Shown here piece by piece: positions 5,061 to 22,117 of a DNA stretch of 64,000 bases. Every line of letters begins with the position of its first letter. The first letter of the stretch is position 1. Both the position numbers and the translations under genes were made by a program. The notes beneath the pieces are model-generated. The model did no database searches. It saw nothing but the letters and a program-made list of their open reading frames with translations, and was not told the DNA's origin. The DNA is from an uncultured bacterium (GTDB taxonomy: Bacteria; Fidelibacterota; Marinisomatia; Marinisomatales; UBA1611), in contig CALSPG010000005.1 of assembly GCA_943788175.1 (NCBI GenBank), forward strand, positions 416,001 through 480,000. Direction: 5' to 3'.

Positions 5061-7355
5061 ATGAATTTAAAAAGTATTATAAAACGTATCTTCTTATTAG
5101 ACGCATATTATCCAAGAACGATAATTGCCTCTATCATTCTTTTAACAATCTTTTTCATGTGGAAAATTCCTGAATTAAAAATTGATCCAGGTCTTAGATC
5201 ATTGGTCCCACCAAATCATAAAATTGTTAAAAATATGGAATTAGCAGAAGATTTATTCAGTAGTAACGAAATTGTAATCATAGCTGTTGAATCTGAAGAT
5301 TTATTATCCAGGACTACCCTTATGAAGTTTTCCTCTATGCATGATTCTCTAGCAAGCATTCCCTCGGTAAGTCGCGTTGGGTCTATATATAATCAAAAAT
5401 ATATTGTCCCTGATGATGGTGGTTTTGAAATACAAAAAATTCTTCAAAAAATACCAGAAGATTCAATTGAAACCTCAAATTTTATTGAAACCATTCAGGC
5501 AAGCGAAATCATTGGGAGCTTAATTTCCTCAGATCTTAATATTATGTGTTTTGTGGCTCAAATTTCGGCTCCAACAGATTTCGATGAGATTGCTTTCAGA
5601 AAAAACTTATTTCGAATAGTTAATCGATTTGAAGACCCAGAAAATATTTACATTGCTAGTTCTATAATCTCAGCTGCTGAGTCCATTGATAGTGTGAAGA
5701 GAGATATGAGGACCTTTACACCTATTGCTCTCGGTTTAATGATAGTACTCTTAATCTTAAGTTTTAGAAGTTGGACTGGAACATTCTTACCTTTATTTGT
5801 TGTTGCGTTTTCAATACTATGGACATTTGGATTAATGGCTTGGCTAGGAATATCTGTACCGATTATTGGTGGCTTGATTCCAATAATGCTTATCGCGATT
5901 GCAAATAATTATGGTATCCATATTATATCTCATTATTATGAATTTACAAAATTAGATCAAAATCTTGATAGAGTTGAAATATTAAAGAGGACTATGAAAA
6001 GACTTGGGATGCCGATTTTCTTAGCCGGTTTTACAACAGTAATTAGTTTTTTAAGTTTATTAACTCACGAACTCACAAAAGTGCGAGAAATTGGAGCATT
6101 AGTTTCTTTTGGCATAGCAGTCTCTTTCTTTTTAAGTCTTCTATTCATACCTGCAATTTTAATTTTAGTGCCAAGACCAACCTATCTCGGTAAAGAAAAA
6201 AGTCTAGAAGCAGTAAATAATTTTCTTGTTAATTGGGGAAAATTTTTTGTAAAAAATAATTCGACTTTTTTAATATTATTATTTTCAGGGATGTTCTTAT
6301 TTTCATTTGGCATCAGAGATATTACCATAGATACAGTACCAGATAATTATTTTCCTAAAGATTCAAAAATAAGGAGAGCTAGTGCCGTCATAAATGAGGT
6401 TTTTGGAGGTTCAACTCAATTAAACATTCTTATAGAAGGGGATATTTATGATCCTAATTCTTTAAACCACATCGATAAACTTATGAACCACATAAAAGAA
6501 AAAAATGATGTAGTTAGTTCTACTTACTCTATAGCAGATGTGATAAAAAAAATGCATTTTTCTTTTAACAACGGCAACATTGATTCTTTGAAAATTCCAT
6601 TCAGTCGTGACCTTATAGAACAGTACATGTTTTTATACTCGATAGCAGGGGAAGACAATGACTTTGATTTAATATTAAACGATACAGATGACCCTAATTA
6701 TTCGCAAGGATTTGTAAGAATTAAAAAAGTTAGTACTGCAGATTTAATGGCTTTAGTGGATGACACCGAAGATTATATTCATTCGAATTACTATGATGGT
6801 AACCCAATTAATCCTATGTTGTCTGGGCCAGCAGCATTGTTAGGAGCAGTTAGTCATTCTGTTATTAGAGGCCAAATTATTAGTCTTGCAATGGCCTCAT
6901 TGATATTATTTATGATAATGGCAATCGTTTTCAGATCTTTTGTCGGCGGTGTTTTAGCTAGTCTACCTATGATGCTTGCAGTAATACTTATATTTAGTTT
7001 ATTAGGAAATTTTGGTATTCCTTTAAACATGACAACCTCCTTATTAACCTGTATTCTTGTTGGAGTTGGAATAGACTATTCCGTTCATTTTCTTTGGCAT
7101 CTAAGAGAATACCTTAGAGAAGGATATGATCTAGACTCAGCAATCTCTAACACGATGAAAGTTTCAGGTAAGGGTATTCTATTTAATGGCGTTTCTGTAA
7201 TCGTAGGTTTTTCTGTACTAATGTTTTCAGTATTTATGCCTTTAAAAGAATTTAGTATTTTAATTATGGCTTCAATTGGTTTTTGTTTAGTTGGTGGAAT
7301 GGCGATTTTACCAGCCATCGTAAGTCTTATAAAACCTAGTTTTTTATATAAATAA
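5061..7355 (+). CDS. MMPL/RND-family lipid transporter (copy 1)
   Basis: 764 aa, two repeats of 1 TM + periplasmic loop + 5 TM; GVGIDYSVH in second half. Confidence 0.85.
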   Translation: MNLKSIIKRIFLLDAYYPRTIIASIILLTIFFMWKIPELKIDPGLRSLVPPNHKIVKNMELAEDLFSSNEIVIIAVESEDLLSRTTLMKFSSMHDSLASIPSVSRVGSIYNQKYIVPDDGGFEIQKILQKIPEDSIETSNFIETIQASEIIGSLISSDLNIMCFVAQISAPTDFDEIAFRKNLFRIVNRFEDPENIYIASSIISAAESIDSVKRDMRTFTPIALGLMIVLLILSFRSWTGTFLPLFVVAFSILWTFGLMAWLGISVPIIGGLIPIMLIAIANNYGIHIISHYYEFTKLDQNLDRVEILKRTMKRLGMPIFLAGFTTVISFLSLLTHELTKVREIGALVSFGIAVSFFLSLLFIPAILILVPRPTYLGKEKSLEAVNNFLVNWGKFFVKNNSTFLILLFSGMFLFSFGIRDITIDTVPDNYFPKDSKIRRASAVINEVFGGSTQLNILIEGDIYDPNSLNHIDKLMNHIKEKNDVVSSTYSIADVIKKMHFSFNNGNIDSLKIPFSRDLIEQYMFLYSIAGEDNDFDLILNDTDDPNYSQGFVRIKKVSTADLMALVDDTEDYIHSNYYDGNPINPMLSGPAALLGAVSHSVIRGQIISLAMASLILFMIMAIVFRSFVGGVLASLPMMLAVILIFSLLGNFGIPLNMTTSLLTCILVGVGIDYSVHFLWHLREYLREGYDLDSAISNTMKVSGKGILFNGVSVIVGFSVLMFSVFMPLKEFSILIMASIGFCLVGGMAILPAIVSLIKPSFLYK

Positions 7356-7678
7356 TGAAGAAAAACCAAGATAAATCAATTAGCCTTATTATACTTTTTT
7401 TATCAGGGCTAGCTATAATCTGGTGGTTCTATAATTATTATTTAATTCCAGATAATCAAGGTGTAGTTGAAGTTTACAACCTTAAAACCATTGTGTCATG
7501 GGGTTCTAAAAATTCAGATCTACTATTAATTATCTATATATTTTTATGCTTACAACTAGCAGGATTATCAGAGTTTAAACAGCGGCAAGACTATCTTACC
7601 GTGGCTTTAATTAGTCTAGTTTTCACCCCAATTGGTCTACTCTTTATAAAAGATGAAAAAGAAAAACCGGATGAATAA
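7355..7678 (+). CDS. hypothetical membrane protein (3 TM)
   Basis: Translationally coupled to MMPL stop (TAATG); hydrophobic segments. Confidence 0.65.
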   Translation: MKKNQDKSISLIILFLSGLAIIWWFYNYYLIPDNQGVVEVYNLKTIVSWGSKNSDLLLIIYIFLCLQLAGLSEFKQRQDYLTVALISLVFTPIGLLFIKDEKEKPDE

Positions 7679-8445
7679 AATCTTGTCTTTTTTGTTTTTT
7701 ATTAATGTCGTTTTTGCTGGCGATAGCAACCCTGAGGCATTGGAAATTATGGAAAGAGTAATAGCTCACCCAAACCCAAAGACATCAATATCAGAGGTTC
7801 ATCTAGAAATAATTAGAAAAAAGGGAAGCAAAACAAAGCAAAAAAATAGAGCTTTTATCAGTTATGAAAAATTGTATGATGACGGTGATTACAAGAAAAA
7901 ATCATTAGTTAAATTTTTAGAGCCTAAATCCGTTGAGGGCACCGGCTTATTAAGTTGGACAAAATTTAATGGTTTATCAGAGCAATGGTTTTTTCTTCCA
8001 ATATTGAAAACAGCAAAAAAAATTAAATCTAAAGAAAAATCAAAATCTTTTATGTCTACAGATTTCATTTACGAAGATTTGGAAAGCAGAGAGATTTCTG
8101 ATGATAGTTTTAAGATTTATGGAAAAGAAATAATTAATAATAAAGATTGTATCATTATTGATTCTTCTCCAATAAAAGAGAGTTCATATTGGGGGAAAAA
8201 AATATATGTTGATACTCAAATATGGAAAATTAGAAAAGTAGAATATTTTTCAGCGCAATCAAAATTAGAGAAAACGTTGCATTTTAAGGAAATAGTCAAA
8301 ATGGGTAAGTATTGGTTCCCGAAAATATTAGAGATGCGCAAAGAAAATGGTAATTATCACTATCATGAAAGTGGCCGCTTTTAAGCCAGATACAGGGTTA
8401 GATGATCAAGTTTTTACAGAATCTTTTTTGATAGAAAAAAATTAA
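7671..8445 (+). CDS. LolA-like outer-membrane lipoprotein-sorting protein (copy 1), with apparent +1 frameshift near 8355
   Basis: Signal peptide MNKILSFLFFINVVFA; F.EP..V.GT.LL, QWFFLP, FMSTDF.YED motifs; +1 frame continues TIMKVAAFKPDTGLDDQVFTESFLIEKN* to 8445, matching the tail of paralog 21353-22117. Confidence 0.75.
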
Positions 8446-8520
8446 TTAAATAATCATTTTTAACCAATTAGTTGAAGCCGGGTCTAATTAATAAAGTATT
8501 TTACAAGGAGTAATTAAATA

Positions 8521-10170
8521 ATGAATAAAAAATTTAAAAAAGATGCTTCTAAATATAAATCTTGGGTGTTGCGAGACAGACAAATTTGCGATTTAGAAAT
8601 GATTTTAAACGGAGGTTTTTCTCCTTTAAATGGCTTTCTAAATAAAGAGAATTATGAAAATGTATTGATTGACATGAGACTTTCAGATGGTAGTGTATGG
8701 CCAATGCCTATCACCCTGGATGTTAACTCAAAATTTTCTAAATCAATATCAATCGGGGAAAATATAACCTTGAAGGACAAGGAAGGATTTTCAATTGCAG
8801 TTCTAGAGGTTGAAAATAAATGGGAGCCAGACTTATATAAAGAAGCAGAATTAATTTTTGGCACTAAAGACGTATCTCACCCCGGAGTTGATTATCTACT
8901 TAATTATAGTAACAATATTTATATAGGCGGTAAAGTAGAATTAATAGACTTACCTCACCATTATGATTATAAAGATTTGCGTCTTAGTCCAAAAAATCTG
9001 AAACAAAAGTTCAAAGATTTAGGATGGGATAATATAGTCGCTTTCCAAACACGTAATCCGCTACACAAAGCACATGTTGAAATGACATTAAAAGCACTAG
9101 AAGATTTAGACGCTAATCTATTAATTCATCCGGTAGTTGGTATGACTAAGGCTGGAGATGTCGATCATTATACTCGAGTGAGGTGTTATCAGCATGTACT
9201 AAATAAGTATCCAAAAAATAAAGCAATATTAAGTTTAATACCGTTAGCAATGAGAATGGGTGGGCCAAGAGAAGCACTCTGGCATGCTCTTATTAGAAAA
9301 AACTATGGTTGTACTCATTTAATCGTTGGTAGAGATCATGCTGGGCCAGGCCTAAATAAAGAAGGTAATCCATTTTATGGGCCTTACGATGCTCAAGAAA
9401 TGCTTCAAAAATTTGAAGAAGAAATTGGAATTAAAATGGTGCCTTTTAAGTTTTTGGTTTACCTTCCAGATGAAAATATTTACAAGCCAATTGATGAAAT
9501 TCCAAGTGATACTAATTATAAAACAGTCTCTGGGACTCAATTAAGAGATTACCTTGATAAAGGGAAAGATATTCCAGAATGGTTCACCTACAAAGAGGTG
9601 GCTAATGAGCTTCAAAAATCTCAACCACCTATTTCTAAAAGAGGTTTTACAGTCTTTTTTACAGGATTGTCGGGTTCGGGGAAATCTACTTTAGCAAATG
9701 GTCTATTAATAAAACTGTTAGAGAATGGAAATAAACCTGTGACACTCCTAGACGGAGATATTGTTAGAACTCATTTATCGAGTGAATTAGGTTTTTCAAA
9801 AGAGCATCGATCTTTAAACGTCAAGCGTATTGGGTATGTAGCAAGTGAAATAACAAAAAATGGTGGCATCGCTATTTGTGCTCCTATAGCACCCTATGAA
9901 AAAGATAGATCTTATAACAGAAATCTTATTTCAAAATTAGGCGGATACATTGAGATACATGTTTCGACTTCGTTAGAAAAGTGCGAGGAGAGAGATGTTA
10001 AAGGTCTTTATAAATTAGCAAGAAAAGGGGTAGTGAAAGAATTTACAGGCGTTTCTGACCCATATGAAGCTCCCCAAAATGCTGAGCTTGTAATCGATTC
10101 TAGTGATGTTGATCCTGAAAAACTTGTCGAACAGATTTATGATTTTATTAAAAGTTTATCTTTCATTTAA
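8521..10170 (+). CDS. sat/cysC: bifunctional sulfate adenylyltransferase / adenylylsulfate kinase (PAPS synthase)
   Basis: AFQTRNPLHKAH, GRDHAG (ATP sulfurylase); C-terminal FTGLSGSGKST, LDGD, RDVKGLY, FTGVSDPYEAP (APS kinase); RBS AAGGAG. Confidence 0.95.
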   Translation: MNKKFKKDASKYKSWVLRDRQICDLEMILNGGFSPLNGFLNKENYENVLIDMRLSDGSVWPMPITLDVNSKFSKSISIGENITLKDKEGFSIAVLEVENKWEPDLYKEAELIFGTKDVSHPGVDYLLNYSNNIYIGGKVELIDLPHHYDYKDLRLSPKNLKQKFKDLGWDNIVAFQTRNPLHKAHVEMTLKALEDLDANLLIHPVVGMTKAGDVDHYTRVRCYQHVLNKYPKNKAILSLIPLAMRMGGPREALWHALIRKNYGCTHLIVGRDHAGPGLNKEGNPFYGPYDAQEMLQKFEEEIGIKMVPFKFLVYLPDENIYKPIDEIPSDTNYKTVSGTQLRDYLDKGKDIPEWFTYKEVANELQKSQPPISKRGFTVFFTGLSGSGKSTLANGLLIKLLENGNKPVTLLDGDIVRTHLSSELGFSKEHRSLNVKRIGYVASEITKNGGIAICAPIAPYEKDRSYNRNLISKLGGYIEIHVSTSLEKCEERDVKGLYKLARKGVVKEFTGVSDPYEAPQNAELVIDSSDVDPEKLVEQIYDFIKSLSFI

Positions 10171-10182
10171 AAATATTATTTA

Positions 10183-12258
10183 ATGACCAAATATTATTTT
10201 TCAGCCATATTTTTAATATATTCAGGGTTTTTTCAAATCTTGAATGCTCAACTAGTTTTACCAACTAATGATAGTGTCCTAAACTATATACATGTTCTTT
10301 TTGAATGGAATCAATACCCTGAAGCAGATAGTTATAACCTTGAAATTTCTACTGATTCTCTTTTTGATAGCGTAATAAGGACAGCTAATGTCAGTTCATT
10401 AATTTTTATTGAAAAAGAAATTATTAATTGGGATTCAAAATATTATTGGCGAATAAGACCGATTTTTGAAAGTTCGCTAACAAGCGAGTGGTCTGAAACA
10501 TATCATTTTTTTACTGGGCAAAAGCGTTCGGAATCAACTGTCAATATTTATGATGAAAATAATGTTAGTCCTGGCCTTACAATATTTGGATCATTTTATA
10601 ATTATTTTAGCGCAATGATTGATATGAATGGGAAAGAGGTATGGAATACCGGTGATAAAAAAATTGTTTATTATAATTCTTCTCCTGCACTTGATTTACT
10701 AGGGTGCATTTCTGATAATTCATTAGAACATAATTTGCCTGGAATTGATTTTTCTATAGATAATGATTTTATTTGGGAAGAACCAAATGATCAGTTTTTG
10801 CACCATGACCTTGTTAAACTTCCAAATGGTAACTACATGGGTATTGTTGCCACTAGCCAGTTAGGGCCTATTCCAATTGGTCCTTGGACATCTGATTACC
10901 AAGGTTTTGGTTTTGCAGCAAATGGTTTATCAGTTGAATTCCCTTGGGTTGGTGACAAACTTGTTGAGTGGGATAAAGATACTAAAGAAGTTGTTTGGAG
11001 TTGGAATGTATTTGACTATTTTTCCATGGAAGATTTTGATGCTCTTGGAGGGACGTGGTTACCTAGTTCTACTGGTTATCAAGAGTATGATTGGACGCAC
11101 CTTAACGCAATGATATTTTCTGAACAGGAAAGCGCGATATATATTTCCATTCGACATTTATCAAGAATAACAAAGATCGCTTACCCAAGTGGTGAGGTTC
11201 TCTGGAATATGGGAAGAGATATGCCTTCAGGCGAAGTTACTTTAGGAAACGATTTTGGGTTTAGTTTTCAGCATGGTTTACAGAAACTTGAAAACGGGAA
11301 TATTGTCACATTTGACAATGGAAATCTGAGCCAATATTTTTTAAATACTGAGGTCCCCACTTCTAGAGCTTTAGAATTATCGATTTTAAATGACCAAGCA
11401 TCAATTATTTGGGAGCATTCTTTACCAGAAAATCTCTTTGGATTCGCATCTGGTAATGCTCAAAAACTTGACAATGGAAATTACCTTATCACAACTGTTG
11501 GTGGTAACGGCACTTCAATTGAAGTAAACAGTGATGGAGTACAAGTTTGGCAAGGAAATTATAACTTATGTGAACCAATCTGTGCTGTTTATCGAGCGAA
11601 TAGAGTTTCAAGCCTATATCCAATTGCTTTCAGTTTAATATCAAATGGTCTTTCGATTAATCAAGAACAGGGTAATGAATTTGGCGCGGGTATTCCACTG
11701 GCATTGGGCAGTGCTTCTGTATCATTCACATTGAAAAATGAAGGCTCTATTTCAGATGTTTTCAATTATGAGTTTGTTGAAGAATTAAATTGGTTTGATA
11801 ATTTTAGTGGATATGTGGAACTCTCGCCAGGAGAAGAGCAAATTATTACTTTTAATGGAGAAACGAGCAGTTCAGCAAATAGTAATTATTACCAGATGGT
11901 TGTAGCACCCTCCCAAAAACCTTCATTAGCTAAAACAGTTATTAACGAGCTCTATATAGATGAATTAAGTTTAAATACTGAATCTTTAATAGTTCCTAAG
12001 AGTGCTAATCTGAAAATGCCCTTTCCAAATCCATTTAATTCATTTGTTCATCTTAATGTAGAAAATATTTTAGAAAATGGACTCAGTATTGATATATATG
12101 ATATAAATGGTAAAACTGTTGCAAGTATACCAATAATATCAAATTCAAGTAACTTTCATACTGTGTGGAATGCTGAGAGTCATCCATCGGGGTTGTACTT
12201 TTTAAGTATTGACAACTCTATCAATACTCAATTCAAGAAAATTTTATACTTAAAGTAA
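10183..12258 (+). CDS. secreted aryl-sulfate sulfotransferase (ASST) with N-terminal Fn3/Ig-like domain and C-terminal Por/FlgD-like sorting tail
   Basis: Signal peptide; HHD, DWTHLNA, ISIRH, FQHG motifs; AQKLDNGN propeller repeats; tail FPNPFN..IYDING..WNA..SG.Y. Confidence 0.8.
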   Translation: MTKYYFSAIFLIYSGFFQILNAQLVLPTNDSVLNYIHVLFEWNQYPEADSYNLEISTDSLFDSVIRTANVSSLIFIEKEIINWDSKYYWRIRPIFESSLTSEWSETYHFFTGQKRSESTVNIYDENNVSPGLTIFGSFYNYFSAMIDMNGKEVWNTGDKKIVYYNSSPALDLLGCISDNSLEHNLPGIDFSIDNDFIWEEPNDQFLHHDLVKLPNGNYMGIVATSQLGPIPIGPWTSDYQGFGFAANGLSVEFPWVGDKLVEWDKDTKEVVWSWNVFDYFSMEDFDALGGTWLPSSTGYQEYDWTHLNAMIFSEQESAIYISIRHLSRITKIAYPSGEVLWNMGRDMPSGEVTLGNDFGFSFQHGLQKLENGNIVTFDNGNLSQYFLNTEVPTSRALELSILNDQASIIWEHSLPENLFGFASGNAQKLDNGNYLITTVGGNGTSIEVNSDGVQVWQGNYNLCEPICAVYRANRVSSLYPIAFSLISNGLSINQEQGNEFGAGIPLALGSASVSFTLKNEGSISDVFNYEFVEELNWFDNFSGYVELSPGEEQIITFNGETSSSANSNYYQMVVAPSQKPSLAKTVINELYIDELSLNTESLIVPKSANLKMPFPNPFNSFVHLNVENILENGLSIDIYDINGKTVASIPIISNSSNFHTVWNAESHPSGLYFLSIDNSINTQFKKILYLK

Positions 12259-13326
12259 TTGAAGCATTTTTACAAAAGTTTTTCAGTATTAGTATTAATG
12301 AATATGCATATAGTGTTTTCACAATGCGATAGCGCATATACATATATTGATTCATTACCGAGTAATGTAAATATCCTTTTTGGAGACAGTTGCTTTTATA
12401 ATGAAGATATAAGTGTATTAAATGATCTTATAAATGATAATAATCTAAATTATGAATCACCTCTTCATTTGGGAACCCAATCATGGTTCAGCGGTCGACT
12501 TAAAATATTAGTGGCAGGTAATTATGGTAATAGCTCAGGTGTGAATGATACAATTTTTATTTTGCCAGAATCTATTGGAAATTGGACCAAACTTAGTGGT
12601 TTATATTTAGAATGGAATAGAATATCATCACTACCTTTAAATTTTGAAAAATTAAAAGAACTCAGATCGTTATACATTTCAAATAATATTTTAGAAAGTG
12701 TTATTGAAAACTTAGATAGCTTATCCAGTCTCAAATATTTAGATCTTGGCTATAATAAAATTGATTCCTTACCATCTTCGTTATGTGGATTAAATGAACT
12801 AGAATACCTATGGTTATTTAATAACAAACTAGAATCACTCCCTGATTGTATCTGCAGTATGACCATTGATTGGAATAGTGATGACAGTGCTTGGTTTCCA
12901 TACTTTGCTATTGGCGGAAATAATCTTTGTGACAATATGCCGGAGTGCATAGAGAATAGTTCAAATTTTAACGTGAGTCTTGATCAGTTTTATTATTCTT
13001 TTCAAGTTGAATCATTGCAGGAATGTGATTATGCTGGGATTAATGAAGCTGAGGTTGTGCCTAATTATATCAGTATAGACAACCTTTACCCCAACCCCTT
13101 TAATCCCCATACAAATATAAAAATAGTCCTTTTAAAACGTGATTATGTGAATATTTCAATTTATGATATTAAAGGAAATTTAATTGACGTTTTGAACAAT
13201 AGAATACTTGAAGAGGGTAATTACAATTATAAGTGGAATGCAACCAATGTAAGTAGTGGTATGTATTTAATTAAAGTAAAAACACCTAACCAGACATTTA
13301 TTCGTAAAGGATTGTTAACAAAGTAA
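12259..13326 (+). CDS. secreted leucine-rich repeat protein with Por/FlgD-like C-terminal tail
   Basis: About 5 LRRs (LxxLxLxxNxIxxLP), Cys-rich caps, YPNPFNP..IYDIKG..WNA..SGMY. Confidence 0.8.
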   Translation: MKHFYKSFSVLVLMNMHIVFSQCDSAYTYIDSLPSNVNILFGDSCFYNEDISVLNDLINDNNLNYESPLHLGTQSWFSGRLKILVAGNYGNSSGVNDTIFILPESIGNWTKLSGLYLEWNRISSLPLNFEKLKELRSLYISNNILESVIENLDSLSSLKYLDLGYNKIDSLPSSLCGLNELEYLWLFNNKLESLPDCICSMTIDWNSDDSAWFPYFAIGGNNLCDNMPECIENSSNFNVSLDQFYYSFQVESLQECDYAGINEAEVVPNYISIDNLYPNPFNPHTNIKIVLLKRDYVNISIYDIKGNLIDVLNNRILEEGNYNYKWNATNVSSGMYLIKVKTPNQTFIRKGLLTK

Positions 13327-13328
13327 TG

Positions 13329-14291
13329 TCAATAGGTAATCAGTGCGCAAGCCATTGATAGACCTGCTCCAGTACCAATGAAGTATAATAGATCACCACG
13401 TTGAATTCTGCCATCTTCTATGGCTATAGCAAGTGCCATAGGAATTGATGCTGCTACACAGTTTCCAGTTTTAGATACAATGTTTATAATTTTATTTTTT
13501 TCAAATCTACCGTAATCATGATAAGCATTAATTGCTTTTAAGGAAGCTTGATGTGGAATTACCCATGATACATTGTCTTTTTTAAATCCTGAATTTTTAA
13601 AAGTTTCCAGGACCATTTTAAAGGCCTTTTTTCTCGCTGACTTATATATTGAAGGCCCATCCATTGTGAAAAAATTATCTTCTATCGAAGTCTCGGGATT
13701 TAAGGGGTGCTTGAATGTGCCGCCTCCTCTGACCTCTGTTAACTCAGCATTTTCTGACCAGGTGTTCATTTTCCAATAATGAAAATTCTTTGAATTAGTT
13801 TGTTCTTTTTCAATCAATATTGCGGCAGCACCATCTCCTAATAGTGCAGCACTTTCAGGTTCTTTTGGGTTCCTGCCAATTGAACCTCTATCTGAAGATA
13901 TAATTAGAATTTTTTTATATATATTTGAATTGATTAGAGCTCTGGCATTATTTAAAGCGATAAGAAACGATAGGCATGTCCCATGAATACTAAAGCAAGG
14001 GACATTTTTTATTTTGAGTTCTCTTTGAAAAAATACAGAAGTATCTGGAATAGTTTGTTTTGGGACTCCTGAAGCATTAATAATTAAATCTGGAATACCG
14101 TTACCTGCTAATGCTTTTCTAGCAGCAACTGCCCCCATTTCATCTACATCTATTTCAGATATTCTTCTTTCCTCAACCCCTGTCTTTGCAATTATCCATT
14201 CAGTACTTTCATTTATAAATTTAGCAGTTGTTTTTGATTTTTCAACTTTAGGAGGCAAATATATTCCTGACCCTGTTATTTTAATACTCAT
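13329..14291 (-). CDS. ketoacyl-ACP synthase III (FabH-like condensing enzyme)
   Basis: Cys-His-Asn triad: GTCLSF, PHQAS, GNCVAASIP; GDGAAA; G.GAGL. Confidence 0.9.
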   Translation of the reverse strand: MSIKITGSGIYLPPKVEKSKTTAKFINESTEWIIAKTGVEERRISEIDVDEMGAVAARKALAGNGIPDLIINASGVPKQTIPDTSVFFQRELKIKNVPCFSIHGTCLSFLIALNNARALINSNIYKKILIISSDRGSIGRNPKEPESAALLGDGAAAILIEKEQTNSKNFHYWKMNTWSENAELTEVRGGGTFKHPLNPETSIEDNFFTMDGPSIYKSARKKAFKMVLETFKNSGFKKDNVSWVIPHQASLKAINAYHDYGRFEKNKIINIVSKTGNCVAASIPMALAIAIEDGRIQRGDLLYFIGTGAGLSMACALITY

Positions 14292-14304: not shown

Positions 14305-15744
14305 TTAAAAATTGAATTTCAAATTTGCGCGGACATGAGAAAAATCTTCCATTATATTAATTCTATAGTCTTCCCCTAATGGGTGTTTATTATTGCCTTT
14401 TATTTTTGTGTAACCTAAAACAAGGTGAAGATTCGTTTTTATAATATACGATGTTTCAAATGAAAATATGAGACCGGGGACTGAACCATTAAAATTGGTA
14501 TTATCAATATCTAAAAGTGAAGAGCCTGAAATAGTTAGTTGCTCATTTGCAAATGTTTTATTTAAAGATATAATAATAGCTCTTTTAGTGAGGACACCAA
14601 GAGATGATCCATATCCAGGTGTAAATATATTTTTTGGATCTAATTCATCTATACTAATCTCTAGGTTGGGTATTGATATATCATTATCAATAGGTAAGCT
14701 GTCAGCTTGATAATCAAGCGTGTCGTAAGTAAATAATTGTCCTATAAGTTTTATATCAAAAGGTAAATCAACTTCAAGTTGTAATGTTGCTTGAAAATAG
14801 TTGGCTTTTTCTTTTAGGGGATATGAGTAGTGCAAGGAATCATAAATTTGTGATTGATAAGAACTTGTCCTTAACAAAAAGTCATCAGCGCTATTTTTAT
14901 CTGAGGTATTAAAAAATGCGGCATCCCCTCTAATTGTTGTATTTCCTAAAAATAAAGTAGATCCAAAACCAAGCATTTTCGTTTTTCTATATCCATAAAT
15001 TATGTCAATAATCGAAAAACTTTTATCTGGACCAAATGCATAGACATTGACTCCTGATAAGTTGAATAATCGATCATATCCTTCAAAATAATTGATTGAA
15101 ATATCACCAACGCCAAATGTTCTTGCAGCATAAATCCCAAGCTCTAGGGGCATTCCTCTTATTTTCATAAACTCTTCACTAGAAGGATTCGAGGGAAGTT
15201 TAATCGGAAAATCATCACTTTCTTGAGGTGTCCTGTGCGTATTGTGCAAGGGAGATAAAGTGAAACCAAATTTGTAATTATTTAGGTATAAATCGATAGC
15301 TGAAGAAAACACACCAAGCTTTTTATCTGAACCACTTTCAAATGTATAGTAGTAATCATATGGACTGACAACATCAATCGGACTATTTTCATCAACATTA
15401 CCCCAACTATGAATCATTTTACCAATTTTGAACTCACCCCATGATGTAAACATTTGTAAATAAAACTCACGCATATCTACGCTAAAGTCAGTGGGCGATT
15501 GGTCTGATAAAAAGTGGGTAGATTCTCTTAACTTATGTTCAACATCTATGTTAGATCGAAATAAAATATCACTGCTTTCATGGTCCACATTAAAACGAAG
15601 CAACCTGTAAGGTAGGTTTATTAAAGAGCCATCTGATAATCTCGAAATATAATTAAAATCTACAAAGCCACTAATTGTGTTAGAGGATTGACTTATAGCG
15701 AAATTAAATAAGAAGATTATAAAAAGAATTTTATTTAAGCGCAT
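14305..15744 (-). CDS. outer-membrane beta-barrel protein (DUF1302-like)
   Basis: Signal peptide; REFYL..KIGKM..SWG..D...P.D motif; amphipathic strands; C-terminal RANLKFNF. Confidence 0.7.
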   Translation of the reverse strand: MRLNKILFIIFLFNFAISQSSNTISGFVDFNYISRLSDGSLINLPYRLLRFNVDHESSDILFRSNIDVEHKLRESTHFLSDQSPTDFSVDMREFYLQMFTSWGEFKIGKMIHSWGNVDENSPIDVVSPYDYYYTFESGSDKKLGVFSSAIDLYLNNYKFGFTLSPLHNTHRTPQESDDFPIKLPSNPSSEEFMKIRGMPLELGIYAARTFGVGDISINYFEGYDRLFNLSGVNVYAFGPDKSFSIIDIIYGYRKTKMLGFGSTLFLGNTTIRGDAAFFNTSDKNSADDFLLRTSSYQSQIYDSLHYSYPLKEKANYFQATLQLEVDLPFDIKLIGQLFTYDTLDYQADSLPIDNDISIPNLEISIDELDPKNIFTPGYGSSLGVLTKRAIIISLNKTFANEQLTISGSSLLDIDNTNFNGSVPGLIFSFETSYIIKTNLHLVLGYTKIKGNNKHPLGEDYRINIMEDFSHVRANLKFNF

Positions 15745-16339
15745 ATGTTATCCATTGTATGATTTCATTTCCTTGAGTTTTCCAAGCTCTTTGCAGAGCA
15801 AAATCAGGAAAATCACCTAAAAGTTCTCCATTCCAAGTATAACTAAGCAAGGTCTCATTTTGATTTTTAGGGGAAAGCTCCCATTTGCCTGCTGCATTTA
15901 TTAATCGTATATAGTTTTTATTTAATGGAGCATTTTTATGGTTTCCAGAAACGAAAGAAAACTCCCATTCAGAATCTTTTCTGCTTTTTTTATGCTTTAT
16001 AACATAATCTCTATCTGCAAGTAGAAAAGGCATGTCAAGCATTATATGAACTGTGTTTTCTCCTAAAATTTTAACTTCATGAATTCTTCTAAATACTTTT
16101 GGGTAGTGTTCTACATCTTCAATGATTTTAGCTATTGGTTCAATTGAATATGGTAATGAAGAACTCACTTTGCATATTGGAAATCCTTGATAATTTGTCC
16201 ATTTGATTTCAATATCACCTTCTTGAATGATATTCCACTCTATTGGACTCTTAAAATCTTTTAGATTTAACTCGCTATAATAGACCCCTAGGTTTAGAAA
16301 AAATAAAAGCGTAAATAAATTTGATTTTAAGTGTCTCAT
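15731..16339 (-). CDS. START-domain (lipid-binding) protein with signal-like N-terminus
   Basis: MPFLLADRDYV (P....RD.V START motif), G.W.L.P, ..G.FP. Confidence 0.75.
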   Translation of the reverse strand: MRHLKSNLFTLLFFLNLGVYYSELNLKDFKSPIEWNIIQEGDIEIKWTNYQGFPICKVSSSLPYSIEPIAKIIEDVEHYPKVFRRIHEVKILGENTVHIMLDMPFLLADRDYVIKHKKSRKDSEWEFSFVSGNHKNAPLNKNYIRLINAAGKWELSPKNQNETLLSYTWNGELLGDFPDFALQRAWKTQGNEIIQWITYALK

Positions 16340-17421
16340 TTATTCAAAAATGTCTCATATATTGATGAACAATCTTTTTTTATTCTCTCTTCAGATAGTC
16401 CAAACTTTTTTAAATCATACTTGTGCTTACTTTTATAATTTTTCTGTTTTTCAGCGGTATTTTTAATTTCATTTCTAAGTTCTTCTGAAGGTTTATGGTT
16501 TGTAAAAATAAAAATATCGTCCATAAGTTTTTCAAAATTTTCCATCATTTGATCATATCGAACTATCATTACCCTTGATTTGTCAATTTTATTATTTTCC
16601 CAATCATTATTAAATCGTATTAACAGGGTAATGAGTGCATTATAAAGTCTTTCGATATATTTTTCTCTAATATTTGTGTCCAAACTCCAAAATCCAAACC
16701 TTTTATCAAGGACACCCGTTACTAAACTTAAACCTGATGGGATTACACTTAATGGATCTCTTATCATATATAAGATTCTAGAATCAGGAAATCTTTTTTG
16801 AAAAGAGGGAAGATTTGTGCTTAGAGAAAATAGTTTTCCTATGTAAGGTAAATCTTTTTTATATGTTTTCCTTGCCCAAACATTTTCATACCAATCAAAA
16901 TCCCTTTTACTAGTATCTCTGTGTTCTGGATCAAAATATTTAAAAAAATCTTCATCTGCAAATGAGAACAAAAACCCATAGAGGAAGAAGCCATCAAAAT
17001 ATCTAAAAAATAGACCAACGTCATCTGTTTCGATAGATGTTAAACTTGTTTTATGTGCTTCTGTTGAATGGTGACGGGCTGGGCTTAATTTTTCTAAGAC
17101 TGGTAAAAATGGTTTTATTACTTTTTGAAGAATTATCGAAGGATAAATTAATTGCCAAAGTTGAGACCCTTTACCGAGGCCACTATTAATCAAATATCTT
17201 TGTAAAAAAGTAGTGCCAGATCTAGGATTTCCAACAATTACAATTGGTTTATGCAGGCTAGGTTTTCGAGCTATTTTATAAAAGATTTTATCAATAAATA
17301 AGAAAATTGAAACAATCAATCGCATCATACTTAGAAAAAACCCTGTAATAATTGGGCTGAACCATGCCCCAAATGTGTTTCCAACAATCTTATAGGCTTC
17401 TAATTTTCTGTTTATATTCAT
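16336..17421 (-). CDS. PAPS-dependent sulfotransferase (Sulfotransfer_3 / Stf3-like)
   Basis: 5'-PSB loop IVGNPRSGTTFL; 3'-PB motif IRDP.SVIPS; hydrophobic N-terminus; C-terminal H.Y.L..FGL. Confidence 0.9.
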   Translation of the reverse strand: MNINRKLEAYKIVGNTFGAWFSPIITGFFLSMMRLIVSIFLFIDKIFYKIARKPSLHKPIVIVGNPRSGTTFLQRYLINSGLGKGSQLWQLIYPSIILQKVIKPFLPVLEKLSPARHHSTEAHKTSLTSIETDDVGLFFRYFDGFFLYGFLFSFADEDFFKYFDPEHRDTSKRDFDWYENVWARKTYKKDLPYIGKLFSLSTNLPSFQKRFPDSRILYMIRDPLSVIPSGLSLVTGVLDKRFGFWSLDTNIREKYIERLYNALITLLIRFNNDWENNKIDKSRVMIVRYDQMMENFEKLMDDIFIFTNHKPSEELRNEIKNTAEKQKNYKSKHKYDLKKFGLSEERIKKDCSSIYETFLNK

Positions 17422-17491
17422 AGCTTGTTATGTATTTAGAATTTAATTGTATAAAAATTGTTATAATTTTTGAAAGAATTTATTTAACTAT

Positions 17492-17549
17492 TTGACGCAT
17501 TAAGAGTCTAATAGTTAAAATTTTATTAATCAAATAATTGAGCGGTCAA
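17492..17549. promoter_or_regulatory. putative bidirectional sigma70-type promoter pair with overlapping -10 elements
   Basis: +: TTGACG(17492-97)-18 bp-TAAAAT(17516-21); -: TTGACC(17549-44)-18 bp-TAAAAT(17525-20). Confidence 0.45.
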
Positions 17550-17574
17550 AATTTTATTTAATTGGAAAATAACT

Positions 17575-19059
17575 ATGAATTATAAAATTAATATTTTGTT
17601 ATTACTGACATTAGTATTTAAAGCAGATTTAAATGCAGAAGTGTTTGATGGCTACACTCTTTTTTCGCCTACTGGAGGTGGGCCTAGCGGCGCTACAGGG
17701 GGTACTAGTTATCTTTATGATAATGATTATAATATTATTCATACATGGGTTCATTCTAGAGGTGCTGCAAGCATGCCATATCTACTGCCTGACAGTTCAA
17801 TCATATATCCTTTTAGAGTAGAAAGTCCCACTATGAGTGCCGGAGGCGTAGGTGGCGGAGTCGCTCACATTGCTTGGGATGGGACTATATTATGGGAATA
17901 CATTATTTCAAATCAAACCTATCAACATCATCATGATGTTCAGCCTCTTCCAAATGGGAATATATTGGTTATCGCATGGGAGAAAAAAACAGCAACTGAA
18001 GCATACGCTATGGGTAGAGTGTCTCTTGATAACCCATTAAATGAGATGTGGTCAACTGCAATCTTAGAGCTTGAAATGACGCCGCCAAATGGTGCAAATA
18101 TTGTTTGGGAGTGGCACTTATGGGATCATTTAGTTCAAGATTCAGATCAAAGTTTACCAGGTTATGGAACAGTGTCTGCTCATCCACAATTAATGGATAT
18201 TAACTATGGTGAAGTCGGTGGTGGAGGAGGGCCAGGCGGTAGCAATGCTGACTGGATGCATATTAATGCGATAGATTACAATCCTTTTCTAGACCAGATT
18301 GTAATTAGTTCTAGACATCAAAATGAAATATACATAATTGATCATAGTACAACTACCGCTGAAGCGGCAGGACATACTGGCGGAAACTCTGGCAAAGGAG
18401 GCGATTTCTTATATCGCTGGGGTAATCCCTCAGCATATGATCGAGGCTCGAATTCGTCTCAAAGATTAGATAGTCAGCATGGAGTAAACTGGATCAAAGA
18501 AGGGTATCCTGGGCAAGGAAATTTAATTTTATTCAATAATAATTATGGAAATTTAACCTCTGCTGTTTTTGAAATTTCGCCACCTTTGAACTCAGACAGT
18601 ACTAATTATATTATCAACGAAACAGAGCCTTTTGGCCCAAATGAATTAGAGTGGATGCATACAGGTGATTTTCATTCAAATGTTCAAAGTGGAGCATTTA
18701 GATTATCAAATGGTAATACTCTTGTTTCAGTTGCTGATGATGCTACAATCTTTGAAGTCGATTCGTTAGGTAATACGGTTTGGAATTATGAGTACCCAGG
18801 GGCAAACATAATGATAGCTAGATCACAGAAATATTCAATTGATTTTTTTGGAGGAAGTGACTCAACAGGTTTCCCCGATTACATTATTGGCGATGTAAAC
18901 TTTGACTCTTCCAATGATGTCTTCGACTTGATATACGTTGTCGATATGCATTACGGTTTTTATCCAAAAACTCCACCTGCAGATATCAATGAAGATTCAG
19001 AAGTAAACTTTCAAGATGTAATGGCTCTAATTTATCAAGTAATGAACTATCTTCGTTGA
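17575..19059 (+). CDS. secreted aryl-sulfate sulfotransferase (ASST) with C-terminal dockerin-like domain
   Basis: Signal peptide; GYTLFSP; HHD, DWMHINA, ISSRH, SQHG; tail GDVNFDSSNDVFD...ADINEDSEVNFQD (duplicated Ca-binding loops). Confidence 0.82.
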   Translation: MNYKINILLLLTLVFKADLNAEVFDGYTLFSPTGGGPSGATGGTSYLYDNDYNIIHTWVHSRGAASMPYLLPDSSIIYPFRVESPTMSAGGVGGGVAHIAWDGTILWEYIISNQTYQHHHDVQPLPNGNILVIAWEKKTATEAYAMGRVSLDNPLNEMWSTAILELEMTPPNGANIVWEWHLWDHLVQDSDQSLPGYGTVSAHPQLMDINYGEVGGGGGPGGSNADWMHINAIDYNPFLDQIVISSRHQNEIYIIDHSTTTAEAAGHTGGNSGKGGDFLYRWGNPSAYDRGSNSSQRLDSQHGVNWIKEGYPGQGNLILFNNNYGNLTSAVFEISPPLNSDSTNYIINETEPFGPNELEWMHTGDFHSNVQSGAFRLSNGNTLVSVADDATIFEVDSLGNTVWNYEYPGANIMIARSQKYSIDFFGGSDSTGFPDYIIGDVNFDSSNDVFDLIYVVDMHYGFYPKTPPADINEDSEVNFQDVMALIYQVMNYLR

Positions 19060-21356
19060 AATCGAAAAATAAAGAATTCTCTATCAAATTTTGGATTACC
19101 AGGAAGGTAATTGAAAACCCCTTAAAGTCTATTTTATTCCCCCTTGCCTTTACCTCAATTTTTGGATTGGGCATGACATTTATTGTTGTTGATGATGATA
19201 TGCTCGCAATGCTTCCAAATAATATGAGCTCAAAGCTTTCCTGGGATGCGGTGCAGGATGAATTTGGAAGCACAGAATCTATTTTTATCGCATTTGGTTA
19301 TAAAGATAAAACGATCTTTAATAAAAGCTCTTTTTCTGATCTTTGGAAATTAACAAATGAATTAGAATCTCGACCTGAGATAAAAAAAATTACAAGCCTT
19401 TCAAATTTGCCAAAAATTGAAAATGTTGATGGTTTTTTAGAGGTCCACTCATTGCAACCAAGCGAAGAACTAGACGACATTCAAATAAATGGAATAAAAA
19501 AATATGTATATAATAATCAGTCTATTAGAGCGAGGTCAATAAGCAAAGATGGCAATTATTTCAATATAATGGTACAGCCAAATGACAGTATTGCTCATAA
19601 TGTTGTTAGAGATATAGTCGTGGAGATAGGCGATAGCTTATTATCTAAAAATTATGAAATACATTATGGTGGGACTGCATACATTACTGGGTCTGTCCCT
19701 GGTATGATAAAAAATGATATATCAAAACTACTTGGGGTTGGTCTTGTTTTGATGAGTCTGATTTTATTGGTTAACATTCGGGATTTATTTGCGGTAGGGA
19801 TGATATTCTCTGTCATTATCCAATCTCTAATTGTTATGGCTGGATTGATGGGGTGGGTAGTTTATTTGACAGGATCAGAAAATTTTTATTTCACCATTAT
19901 AAATTCATCGATGCCAATAATTTTACTTACGATTGCAAATTCTGATGGAGTTCATGTTGTTACAAAATTTTTTAAAGAGATGAGGCATAATGGCAATATA
20001 AAAAAATCAATAGCCAAATCGATAGACACTCTATTCGTGCCGATATTTTTAACTAGTGTTACCACAATTGCTGCGTTTCTTACTCTTTATTTTGCGCCAA
20101 TAAATCAACTAATGGGTTATGGGATATGCCTAAGTGCTGGGATATTATATGCTTTTATTTTAAGTCTTACTTTTTTACCAGCAGCAATGTCGTTAAAGAG
20201 ATGGGATTTAAATTCGAAAGCAATATCGCAAAATGGGTATTTAGAAAATATAATTTCTAAATTTGGCAAATTAGTAATTTCAAAACCAAAATCAATTTTA
20301 GTAGTTGGAATGATAATTATGTTTATTGGAACTGCGGGATTATCATTGCTAAAAGTGGATGTTAATATTGCTAATTTTTTTAAAGAAGATACTGATTTTA
20401 GGAAAAGTATTGATTTTATAGATCAAGAGATGACGGGTACAATGGATGTACGTATTAGAGTAGAAGCGCCTATCAAGGATCCTAATACATTGAATGAAAT
20501 GCAGGACATGCAAACATTATTGAACAGCAACCCAAAGGTAACAACTAGCTATTCCATAGTGGATGTTGTTAAACAAATGCATCGCATACTTATAGATGAT
20601 AATCCTGAATTTGAAATTGTTCCTAAAGATGAAAAAAAAGTAAGCAATCTTTTAATGATGTATTCAATATCCGGAGATCAAGATGACTTAAATACAATAG
20701 TTGATTATAATTATAAAGTGGGTCTAATAACTGCTTTAAGTCGCGTTATGAGTACAGAAGAAATTATTCAGTTCGTAAAAAAAATTGAAGATCAGGTATA
20801 TGACTTTAAGCATATTAGTAATGCGTCAATAACCGGAATGGCTATTGTGATTAGAGATTTAATTTATTTGGTTATTGAATCTTCAGTAATAAGTATTTTT
20901 TCATCAGTTATACTTATTTGTCTAATTACATCAATATTTTTTAAGAACTTTTCATGGGGCTTCCTTTCAATAGTTCCACTTGTCACGGCAGTCTTAATTA
21001 ATTTTGGCTTTATGGGTATTGCAGGTATTCATTTGAGTCATGTAACAGCACTTTTGTCATCAGTTATTATTGGTGTTGGTGTCGATTTTTCTATTCATTA
21101 CATTTACCAATACAGAAGATTAATCAAGGATAAAGTTCGTAATGGGATATCAAATAAAGTTATAAATGAGGTTGGTTATCCAATCGTATTAGATGCAGCA
21201 TCGAATATGTCTTTTGGAGCTTTATTATTTTCTACTTTCATTCCTGTCCAATACGTTGGGGGTTTAATGGTGTTTGCTATGTTTTCTACAGCTTTCGGCA
21301 CATTAACATTGCTTGCAGCTTCAGTTGAATTATTAAAGACTAGTTATTCAAAATGA
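19056..21356 (+). CDS. MMPL/RND-family lipid transporter (copy 2)
   Basis: 766 aa, 12-TM duplicated architecture; GVGVDFSIH; 4-bp overlap with upstream gene. Confidence 0.85.
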   Translation: MKSKNKEFSIKFWITRKVIENPLKSILFPLAFTSIFGLGMTFIVVDDDMLAMLPNNMSSKLSWDAVQDEFGSTESIFIAFGYKDKTIFNKSSFSDLWKLTNELESRPEIKKITSLSNLPKIENVDGFLEVHSLQPSEELDDIQINGIKKYVYNNQSIRARSISKDGNYFNIMVQPNDSIAHNVVRDIVVEIGDSLLSKNYEIHYGGTAYITGSVPGMIKNDISKLLGVGLVLMSLILLVNIRDLFAVGMIFSVIIQSLIVMAGLMGWVVYLTGSENFYFTIINSSMPIILLTIANSDGVHVVTKFFKEMRHNGNIKKSIAKSIDTLFVPIFLTSVTTIAAFLTLYFAPINQLMGYGICLSAGILYAFILSLTFLPAAMSLKRWDLNSKAISQNGYLENIISKFGKLVISKPKSILVVGMIIMFIGTAGLSLLKVDVNIANFFKEDTDFRKSIDFIDQEMTGTMDVRIRVEAPIKDPNTLNEMQDMQTLLNSNPKVTTSYSIVDVVKQMHRILIDDNPEFEIVPKDEKKVSNLLMMYSISGDQDDLNTIVDYNYKVGLITALSRVMSTEEIIQFVKKIEDQVYDFKHISNASITGMAIVIRDLIYLVIESSVISIFSSVILICLITSIFFKNFSWGFLSIVPLVTAVLINFGFMGIAGIHLSHVTALLSSVIIGVGVDFSIHYIYQYRRLIKDKVRNGISNKVINEVGYPIVLDAASNMSFGALLFSTFIPVQYVGGLMVFAMFSTAFGTLTLLAASVELLKTSYSK

Positions 21357-22117
21357 TTAAACTATTTATTATCTGCTCGATTCAATTTTTTCTTTTAATA
21401 AATAATTTATCAGCACAAACTGGTTACGAATTAGCTAAGAAGCTTGATAATAAAGATAAGCCTCAAAATATGACTAGCCGAATTTCGATGACATTGACTA
21501 ATGCTAAAAATAAATCTCGTAAAAATGTAATGATATCAAAAACAGCAAGCCAGAGCCAAAAACAGATGATTTGGGTTTTAGAGCCTAAGTCTGATAGAGG
21601 TATGTCATTTTTGAAAATCGAGCGTGAAGACAGGAAGACTGAAATGCGTATATGGTTGCCTGCCTTTAACAAAATTCGAAGAATTAATGCAAACAGAAGA
21701 AGTAATTCTTTTATGGGTTCAGATCTTAGTTATGAAGATATGATGAGTCGGTCACTTGATGATAATACATATTTAAGACTTGAAGATGATCAGATTGGGG
21801 GAGAAGAATGTTATGTTTTGGAAGTTATACCAAAAAAAAGCATTAATACATCGTACTCAAAACATATAACATGGGTTTCAAAAGAAAACTTTCAAATTGT
21901 ACAGGAAGCTTCCTATGATAAAAAAAGTAAGCTAAAAAAAATTAAAAACTTCCATTATGTCTTTGTAAATAATTATGAGATAATATCAAAAATTCATGTT
22001 AAAGACTTGCAGAAAAAGCACAAAACTGATATTTATTTTGACCAGGTTAAAGTAGATGCAAAAATGGATGAAAAAATATTTCAAGAAAAAAGTTTAAAAC
22101 GGTTACCGCTTCATTAA
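21353..22117 (+). CDS. LolA-like outer-membrane lipoprotein-sorting protein (copy 2)
   Basis: Signal peptide; EP..DRG..FL, IWLPA..KIRRI, FMGSDLSYED. Confidence 0.85.
   Translation: MIKLFIICSIQFFLLINNLSAQTGYELAKKLDNKDKPQNMTSRISMTLTNAKNKSRKNVMISKTASQSQKQMIWVLEPKSDRGMSFLKIEREDRKTEMRIWLPAFNKIRRINANRRSNSFMGSDLSYEDMMSRSLDDNTYLRLEDDQIGGEECYVLEVIPKKSINTSYSKHITWVSKENFQIVQEASYDKKSKLKKIKNFHYVFVNNYEIISKIHVKDLQKKHKTDIYFDQVKVDAKMDEKIFQEKSLKRLPLH

Follow-up and report, generated by a model that had tools for sequence, protein, structure and literature searches.

The 64,000-nt stretch of DNA analyzed here (the window, whose numbering we use throughout) comes from an uncultured bacterium of the order Marinisomatales, and its positions 5061-22117 hold a gene cluster for sulfotransferases, lipid-carrier-like proteins and a condensing enzyme. 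All 13 open reading frames (ORFs) that a first-pass annotation had listed are there. Unit 1 on the + strand (5061-13326) encodes MMPL1, a small transmembrane (TM) protein, LolA1, Sat/CysC, an arylsulfate sulfotransferase (ASST1) and a leucine-rich repeat (LRR) protein. Unit 2 on the - strand (17421-13329) encodes a sulfotransferase (ST), a START-fold protein, an outer-membrane barrel and a 3-ketoacyl-ACP synthase III (KAS III), and unit 3 on the + strand (17575-22117) a second ASST (ASST2), MMPL2 and LolA2. Their description as three tightly coupled operons stands, as the start and stop codons within units overlap or lie 0-13 nt apart, with the exception of 136 nt before Sat/CysC.

5061-7355, + strand: MMPL1, HAE3/MMPL-type resistance-nodulation-division (RND) inner-membrane transporter (Pfam MMPL 3.8e-45)
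7355-7678, + strand: small membrane protein of 107 aa between MMPL1 and LolA1 (hydrophobic segments; no family above cut-off)
7653-8384, + strand: LolA1, periplasmic LolA-like lipid carrier (LolA_like 2.3e-38; N-terminal signal-like segment)
8521-10170, + strand: Sat/CysC, fusion of ATP sulfurylase and adenosine 5′-phosphosulfate (APS) kinase (PUA_2 1.4e-44, ATP-sulfurylase 6e-84, APS_kinase 6.9e-57)
10183-12258, + strand: ASST1, arylsulfate sulfotransferase-type beta-propeller exported by the type IX secretion system (T9SS) (Arylsulfotrans 5.7e-21, Por_Secre_tail 1.3e-10)
12259-13326, + strand: LRR protein, T9SS-exported (LRR_14, LRR_4, LRR_8; Por_Secre_tail 4.2e-12)
13329-14291, - strand: KAS III, accessory condensing enzyme, putatively CorB/MxnB-like (ACP_syn_III, ACP_syn_III_C)
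14305-15744, - strand: predicted outer-membrane beta-barrel, 479 aa, signal peptide (AlphaFold2 (AF2) and Foldseek)
15731-16339, - strand: predicted START-fold lipid-binding protein, 202 aa, signal peptide, periplasmic (AF2 and Foldseek)
16336-17421, - strand: ST, membrane-anchored Sulfotransfer_3 sulfotransferase (Sulfotransfer_3 9e-16, Sulfotransfer_1 1.1e-08)
17575-19059, + strand: ASST2, periplasmic arylsulfate sulfotransferase-type propeller with a dockerin-like tail (Arylsulfotrans 1.2e-21)
19056-21356, + strand: MMPL2, HAE3/MMPL transporter of an older transporter locus (Pfam MMPL 1.6e-27)
21353-22117, + strand: LolA2, periplasmic LolA-like carrier (LolA_like 4.8e-48; DUF1329 8.4e-06)

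Hidden Markov models (HMMs) of Pfam and NCBIfam back the families proposed earlier for both MMPLs, both LolA_like carriers, Sat/CysC, both Arylsulfotrans proteins, the LRR protein, KAS III (ACP_syn_III) and ST (Sulfotransfer_3). The START protein, the barrel and the small TM protein match no Pfam or NCBIfam family. The START call thus stands by fold and not by HMM. The barrel call also stands by fold but falls as DUF1302, which none of 19 orthologues matches at E ≤ 1. The dockerin on ASST2 is not confirmed: Dockerin_1 stays below its cut-off (15.9 versus 22.9 bits, E = 0.015), although two D-x-N-x-D-type loops, resembling Ca-binding loops, are visible in the tail, within the last 70 residues.

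The cluster has a conserved core. Strong ST orthologues are present in 33 of 60 related genomes, and every one of these 33 carries an ASST2-like gene, as against a single partial ASST match (G045) in the 27 relatives without ST. The barrel is found at the orthologue tier (E ≤ 1e-127) in 31 of the 33, plus a contig-end fragment in G059. We mapped 25 loci, 19 from the window's order and six more, four of which come from other orders of the same class. ST and START are adjacent in all 25, START being directly downstream, and the barrel, ASST1-LRR and one to three copies of ASST2 are kept in the locus with them.

This linkage survives rearrangement. Depending on the genus, the ASST1-LRR block lies between START and the barrel or beyond KAS III, and the four loci from other orders retain the same core between different flanks. 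The expected co-localization in related genomes is therefore borne out, and the genes are associated far beyond chance by both synteny and phyletic profiles. The invariant core is ST-START-barrel, ASST2 and ASST1-LRR, and its most tightly coupled part is ST-START-barrel. In all mapped loci of the window's order the cluster lies beside TPK and SSF, so part of the synteny is inherited position.

The earlier view of the three operons as one invariant system fails. MMPL2-LolA2 come from an older locus, and the MMPL1 unit, KAS III and Sat/CysC are not universal.

Among 300 more genomes sampled from the phylum, ST orthologues are limited to one class and absent from all others. By family they occur in the window's order in f1 (20/24), f16 (5/5), f9 (9/42), f6 (1/1) and f10 (1/2), and in other orders of the class in f17 (13/15), f18 (2/2) and f20 (3/3). 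The ST of the other orders is about 60% identical with its motifs intact. Some 1,970 ST homologues at E ≤ 1e-5 come mainly from marine metagenomes, and an orthologue 62% identical is labeled Candidatus Marinimicrobia, so the module is probably carried by Marinimicrobia. The T9SS tails had at first suggested a flavobacterium (Bacteroidota), a placement given up in view of this labeled orthologue, on which the lineage name rests. In a genome of the same genus (G002:C25) ST and the barrel each have one in-frame TAA, as does Sat/CysC of G010, which could be module decay or assembly error.

ST scores 59.2 bits for Sulfotransfer_3 (PF13469; cut-off 27) and has a hydrophobic N-terminal segment at residues ~17-43. 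Its motifs GNPRSGTTF and RDP...PSG, which we take to be the 5′-phosphosulfate loop and the 3′-phosphate motif, are invariant in 16 of 16 orthologues, whose mean column identity is 74%. The best PDB sequence matches are marginal and both mycobacterial, 2z6v (E 0.0047) and 2zq5 (E 0.08). The entry of 2z6v prints only 'putative uncharacterized protein' and is presumably M. avium STF9. A homologue 63% identical carries the automatic name omega-hydroxy-beta-dihydromenaquinone-9 sulfotransferase (Stf3-like), and a protein atlas search gives only generic 'sulfotransferase' clusters.

Signal peptides are found on ASST2, START, the barrel, LolA1 and LolA2. The AF2 model of the 202-aa START protein (pLDDT 86, pTM 0.80) matches StarD4, StAR, CERT, PCTP and BmCBP in Foldseek at probability 1.00, with TM 0.70-0.74 to StarD4, StAR, StarD5 and BmCBP, and is predicted to have the START helix-grip fold. 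The 479-aa protein is modeled as a 16-18-strand porin/AlgE-like outer-membrane barrel (pLDDT 77), matching porins, AlgE and Occ channels in Foldseek at E ~1e-10.

Both ASSTs are clear members of Arylsulfotrans (PF05935), at 75.4 bits for ASST1 and 77.6 bits for ASST2 against a cut-off of 24.2. H119/H120, H229-x-N231, R247 and Q301-H302 of ASST2 are invariant in 23 sequences of both ASST groups, and H207/H208, H306-x-N308, R324 and Q363-H364 of ASST1 in 12 orthologues. The active site of E. coli ASST consists of His252, His356, Asn358, Arg374 and the sulfo-histidine His436, according to passages of PMC13426309. With HMMER, the H-x-N and R of the window's ASSTs align to His356/Asn358/Arg374 of 3elq, and the Gln-His is offset by one residue from Gln435-His436 of 3elq and aligns exactly to the QH of 9kf6; the His252 equivalent is assigned from spacing only.

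The claim that these are extracytoplasmic ASSTs is thus upheld, with the E. coli catalytic set kept at E. coli-like spacing and both enzymes predicted outside the cytoplasm. Judged by their motifs, ST and both ASSTs look active. The two ASSTs differ in address. ASST1 and the LRR protein end in T9SS tails (41.9 and 46.6 bits for Por_Secre_tail, cut-off 27; TIGR04183 37.9 versus 23), which places them on or outside the cell surface and had been missed in the first-pass annotation. ASST2 has a signal peptide and no T9SS tail.

The LRR protein always adjoins ASST1, and its six Cys are invariant in 17 orthologues. A predicted ASST1-LRR complex scores 0.36 against 0.00 for the best control. Of 80 solved complexes tested 58 reach the mark, as do 2 out of 110 mismatched pairs, and those that reach it with a score of 0.60 or less are only 7 of the 80 and both of the passing mismatches. 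At least 65% of the contacts are shared between prediction runs, and the partner pLDDT is at least 85. The model thus weakly supports an ASST1-LRR complex.

Further ASSTs and T9SS cargo are seen elsewhere. Two distant genomes, G041 (L029 349-5344) and G066 (L067 1079-5340), have three tandem copies of ASST2 that are 53-61% identical to the window's ASST2, which suggests dosage or substrate diversification. A third ASST of the window's genome lies outside the window at G000:C5:44841-46286 (locus L059 7836-9302), 40% identical to ASST2 (Arylsulfotrans 5e-16). It ends a + strand run of a TonB-dependent receptor (896 aa) and proteins of 1303 aa and 342 aa, the latter two lacking a Pfam family, and the run resembles a locus for uptake. 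In tblastn, the C-terminal ends of ASST1 and LRR match more than 70 places on nine contigs of this genome (G000), hence a very large set of T9SS cargo for 2.27 Mb.

KAS III falls below every FabH cut-off (210.5 versus 292.1 bits for TIGR00747 and 221.7 versus 249 for NF006829). A separate housekeeping FabH on another contig scores 392 bits against the cut-off of 292 and is 28% identical to it, so that KAS III is not the sole housekeeping FabH of the genome, a case that would have refuted the first reading. Its best PDB matches are MxnB (4v2p, 174.4 bits) and CorB (4yuc, 173.3), ahead of FabH (at most 154.6), whereas the housekeeping FabH ranks them in reverse (FabH up to 303 bits, MxnB 141, CorB 120). 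The Cys-His-Asn triad aligns with those of CorB and MxnB, and the motifs CLSF and GNC are common to MxnB. By these comparisons KAS III is an accessory paralogue, closest to the pyrone-forming CorB/MxnB. We rejected a DarB/dialkylresorcinol assignment, as DarB models give 24 bits where the cut-off is 550.

The transporters have a different history from the core. Pfam MMPL gives 154.7 bits for MMPL1 and 96.8 bits for MMPL2 (cut-off 20.5), while the HAE3 subfamily model TIGR00921 remains below cut-off for both (258.6 versus 351.9 bits for MMPL1). The two are 25.6% identical, and MMPL1 also matches the sterol-sensing domain (Pfam, 8.8e-09). The MMPL1-small TM protein-LolA1 unit occurs in 12 of the 25 mapped loci, all 12 with the small protein, and LolA2, wherever a locus has it, is paired with MMPL2.

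Genomes of the same order without ST and ASST keep TetR-MMPL2-(ABC-2)-LolA2-barrel2 at the same place, flanked by TPK/SSF on one side and by a FadB-like/thiolase/acyl-CoA-dehydrogenase set on the other. The third operon thus represents an older TetR-MMPL-LolA-barrel transporter locus, next to which the sulfation genes were inserted; TetR and barrel2 were later lost from the window's genome. Hence the MMPL and LolA-like proteins, proposed earlier as parts of the system, are present here with HMM support but are not core.

A second gene of the KAS III family lies between MMPL2 and LolA2 in four genera (L061 2733-3743, L062 9731-10729, L064 11758-12744), with remnants in L030/L063. It is about 28% identical to the cluster's KAS III (ACP_syn_III_C 3.6e-35) and is followed by a paralogous barrel (about 29% identical); both are absent from the window's genome. 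A third MMPL gene of this genome (G000) is at C5:253832-255610.

A supply of PAPS (3′-phosphoadenosine 5′-phosphosulfate) from within the cluster is particular to the window's genus. Sat/CysC is the only APS kinase in the window's genome, and a gene of the PAPS_reduct family (CysH/CysD) was not found in this 92%-complete genome. Hence PAPS serves sulfation there, with no assimilatory use. Only in the window's genus, whose module has captured it, is Sat/CysC part of the cluster, and its inclusion in the system is right for that genus alone. Several relatives have a second ATP-sulfurylase-like domain (30-37% identical) in ORFs of ~725-750 aa that also hold an unassigned partner domain, at G033:C24:95230, G017:C159:1408, G030:C74:8636, G007:C1:41204 and G014:C104:2893.

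The nearest known arrangement is the caprazamycin relay of Streptomyces (Cpz6, a type III polyketide synthase (PKS); Cpz8, a PAPS sulfotransferase; Cpz4, an ASST). There, passages of PMC4257720 describe, a triketide pyrone from a condensing enzyme is sulfated with PAPS and then is a donor for the ASST. Both sets encode together a PAPS-type ST, an ASST and a thiolase-fold condensing enzyme. ST and ASST always occur together in our loci too. The part of the enzyme that makes the carrier would fall to KAS III, which 5 of the 25 loci lack.

The differences from caprazamycin are several. The condensing enzyme here is of the KAS III type (FabH/CorB-like), not a type III PKS, and is dispensable, and the host is diderm, with one ASST in the periplasm and the other displayed by T9SS. 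The cluster adds START, an outer-membrane barrel, MMPL and LolA-like proteins and has no antibiotic scaffold gene. It is conserved by vertical descent across an entire class rather than being a strain-level biosynthetic gene cluster. By analogy, it may be a variation on the caprazamycin-type relay from ST to ASST.

Other likenesses are partial. The ASSTs resemble E. coli ASST (3ELQ) in the Arylsulfotrans score above cut-off, the active-site alignment and the extracytoplasmic location. However, the similarity to that enzyme is only E 6e-07 to the profile (residues 350-526), no DsbL/DsbI neighbor is present, ASST1 has a T9SS tail and is always accompanied by the LRR protein, and ASST2 ends in a dockerin-like tail. 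Their best solved match is in fact not E. coli ASST but 9kf6, an Arylsulfotran_2-type 'Sulfotransferase' of 472 aa (1.3e-11).

The mycobacterial Stf0/Stf3 and MmpL8 sulfolipid systems share a PAPS-type ST, MMPL transporters and an envelope destination. However, the mycobacterial PDB matches of ST are very weak, the cluster has no PKS, Pap or Chp genes and its MMPLs stand outside the conserved core. Its ASSTs, START, barrel and T9SS cargo presumably have no counterpart in the mycobacterial systems.

As comparison families for the transporters we take the aryl-polyene/flexirubin sets of MMPL and LolA-like proteins (with or without an outer-membrane protein) and the DUF1302/DUF1329/RND sets of Proteobacteria. 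They share an MMPL/HAE3 pump, LolA_like and an outer-membrane barrel, and LolA2 has a weak DUF1329 match. Unlike them, the window has a barrel that is not DUF1302 by HMM and no polyene or resorcinol genes. As to CorB/MxnB, they are the top solved matches of KAS III and share its triad, but KAS III has neither carrier-protein nor PKS partners, and its margin over FabH is a modest ~20 bits.

We tentatively favor reading the cluster as a module for envelope sulfation and sulfuryl transfer, specific to the lineage of this uncultured marine FCB bacterium, which is quite possible though well short of secure. The gene content, folds, catalytic residues, localization signals, linkage, KAS III paralogy and lack of assimilatory PAPS use are observed, while the substrates, the products and the transport direction are without exception inferred. 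At the inner membrane, ST would add sulfate to a hydrophobic acceptor with a hydroxyl or enol group. In most lineages the CorB/MxnB-like KAS III would make or prime this acceptor, plausibly as an alkyl-pyrone or a beta-keto-derived enol that would give an aryl-sulfate-like ester.

The START protein would then ferry the sulfated product across the periplasm to the barrel, in this order together with the two pairs of MMPL and LolA-like proteins. The periplasmic ASST2 and the surface ASST1, neither of which needs PAPS, would move the sulfuryl group to periplasmic or surface acceptors or would load it from aryl sulfates outside. Having captured Sat/CysC, the module of the window's genus has its PAPS made on site, for sulfation only.

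Several results weigh against the favored module. A Sat/CysC match is absent in 4 of 14 ST-bearing relatives at least 90% complete, and five ST-bearing genomes (G011, 96% complete; G019, 93%; G020, 95%; G051, 92%; G021, 86%) give no real match to APS_kinase of Pfam, only two 22-bit P-loop matches; PAPS_reduct is found in one of the five. APS kinase was also not found in two of five ST-bearers of other orders, including the 100% complete G077. MMPL and LolA are near the core in none of the four loci from other orders and so are not part of it.

KAS III adds further difficulties. An orthologue is present in 20 of the 25 loci, and the genomes of the other five have none elsewhere (best match 30% identical). 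KAS III is thus dispensable and not the universal builder of the acceptor, contrary to the general role first proposed for it. Moreover, in passages of PMC5506619, Pro266 of helix alpha5 in CorB, after the catalytic His, widens the triad and is tied to non-decarboxylative chemistry. KAS III reads PHQAS where MxnB reads PHQPS and so has Ala at CorB P266, as in FabH, and this marker does not support a pyrone product.

Metatranscriptome contigs from four libraries of three studies cover the cluster (bins covered: X3 30/30, X16 30/30, X17 21/30, X18 25/30), one study being a possible DNA source. One of these contigs bridges the intergenic promoter region between the divergent ST and ASST2. As the evidence consists of contigs, one of them bridging, carry-over of DNA is possible and transcription is not shown.

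The PAPS results leave a puzzle. ST is strongly conserved where PAPS synthesis is undetected, which points to sulfotransfer by cycling of 3′-phosphoadenosine 5′-phosphate (PAP) in vivo or to another source of activated sulfate. According to passages of PMC13426309, certain enzymes of the PAPS type, among them rat AST-IV, Haliangium HocST and M. avium STF9, use aryl sulfates as external donors to resulfate PAP. PAP cycling is thus a possible way out for the PAPS-less genomes.

A more specific form of the favored module is a true trans-envelope relay. At the inner membrane KAS III and ST, with PAPS or PAP cycling, would make a small amphiphilic enol or aryl sulfate, which START, LolA-like proteins, MMPL and the barrel would carry outward and which ASST2 and ASST1-LRR would spend on envelope or extracellular targets. 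We regard this complete scheme as unlikely. If true, it would make activated sulfate available outside the cytoplasm of a diderm bacterium and, antibiotic biosynthesis aside, would be the first physiological donor-carrier system for bacterial ASSTs. An abundant deep-ocean lineage would then also have an unnoticed route to organosulfates.

The sulfated lipid may instead be the end product, a structural or protective sulfolipid of the outer membrane akin to mycobacterial sulfolipids or sulfomenaquinone, with the ASSTs as a second, PAPS-independent route from environmental aryl sulfates and no outward shuttle. The tight coupling of ST-START-barrel and the Stf3-like automatic name of the 63%-identical homologue fit this, and so do the top structural matches of START, which bind sterols, carotenoids and phospholipids. 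The PAPS-less lineages would be explained too, as the ASST route would suffice there. Yet this leaves unexplained why ST is under strong constraint in just those genomes and why two to four ASST copies are retained in different compartments. We find it somewhat doubtful.

Traffic in the other direction is an improbable but coherent alternative. The module would handle sulfated or phenolic compounds from outside the cell. Its surface and periplasmic ASSTs would strip or exchange the sulfate of algal aryl sulfates or sulfated lipids, and the hydrophobic part would be imported by the barrel, START and LolA-like proteins, for instance to beta-oxidation. ST would use bound PAP as a cofactor with aryl-sulfate donors and so require no net PAPS. 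The surroundings agree: in relatives the older TetR-MMPL-LolA-barrel locus adjoins the FadB-like, thiolase and acyl-CoA dehydrogenase genes, and the third ASST of the genome comes after a TonB-dependent receptor. So do the many ST-bearing genomes without PAPS synthesis and the PAP resulfation by AST-IV, HocST and STF9 cited above.

The best PDB match of ST (2z6v, E 0.0047) would also agree if it is STF9, as we assume. On the other hand, the characterized MMPL/HAE-type RND pumps all export and to our knowledge none imports. The genus-specific capture of Sat/CysC argues for PAPS as the donor there, 20 of 25 loci have a biosynthetic condensing enzyme and the core has no sulfatase or catabolic enzyme.

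It is very unlikely that the cluster is no single system, being merely an old lipid-efflux locus and genes of independent use (the ASSTs, ST, KAS III) gathered at a permissive site between TPK and the beta-oxidation genes. The constancy of TPK/SSF in the window's order makes part of the synteny positional, MMPL2-LolA2 are older than the sulfation genes, and KAS III, MMPL1 and Sat/CysC are dispensable. The core, however, stays intact after internal rearrangements and in other orders with different flanks and no MMPL nearby. Moreover, the presence and absence of ST and ASST are almost perfectly matched among the 60 relatives, and start and stop codons overlap within the operons.

A hydrocarbon route like that of CurM and the olefin synthases, in which sulfation of a beta-hydroxyl is followed by elimination to a terminal alkene, would bring together the condensing enzyme to extend the chain, the PAPS-type ST to sulfate it and the lipid carriers to export the alkene, but is scarcely credible, as the cluster has no thioesterase, ketoreductase or ACP, the two or three conserved ASSTs and the LRR protein would have no role and KAS III is absent from 5 of 25 loci.

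We found no publication on this cluster in the literature on sulfotransferases with MMPL/LolA in flavobacteria, on aryl sulfotransferases of marine Bacteroidetes and on sulfotransferases of Marinimicrobia/SAR406/Marinisomatota; the single paper that turned up names SULT only among its abbreviations. The natural substrates and roles of bacterial ASSTs are described as poorly understood in passages of a 2026 review (PMC13426309). Here two ASST types are tied, class-wide in an abundant uncultured marine lineage, to a PAPS-type ST, lipid carriers of both membranes and T9SS display. This defined set of 6-13 genes gives the ASSTs a concrete physiological setting. If the relay is true, organosulfates would be made or remodeled at the cell surface, with a bearing on marine sulfur and dissolved-organic-matter cycling and on the envelope biology of organisms not yet grown.

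Past the end of the cluster, the window encodes at 22124-23389 (- strand) a 3-hydroxyacyl-CoA dehydrogenase of 421 aa without an enoyl-CoA hydratase domain. The same position in relatives has a FadB-like fusion of 785-845 aa, then thiolase and acyl-CoA dehydrogenase. Two adjoining genes of the amidohydrolase family follow at 23413-27748 (- strand), for 443 aa and 1006 aa, the shorter starting with a signal-like segment. Near this pair are a SLOG/lysine-decarboxylase-like gene and an M19 dipeptidase.

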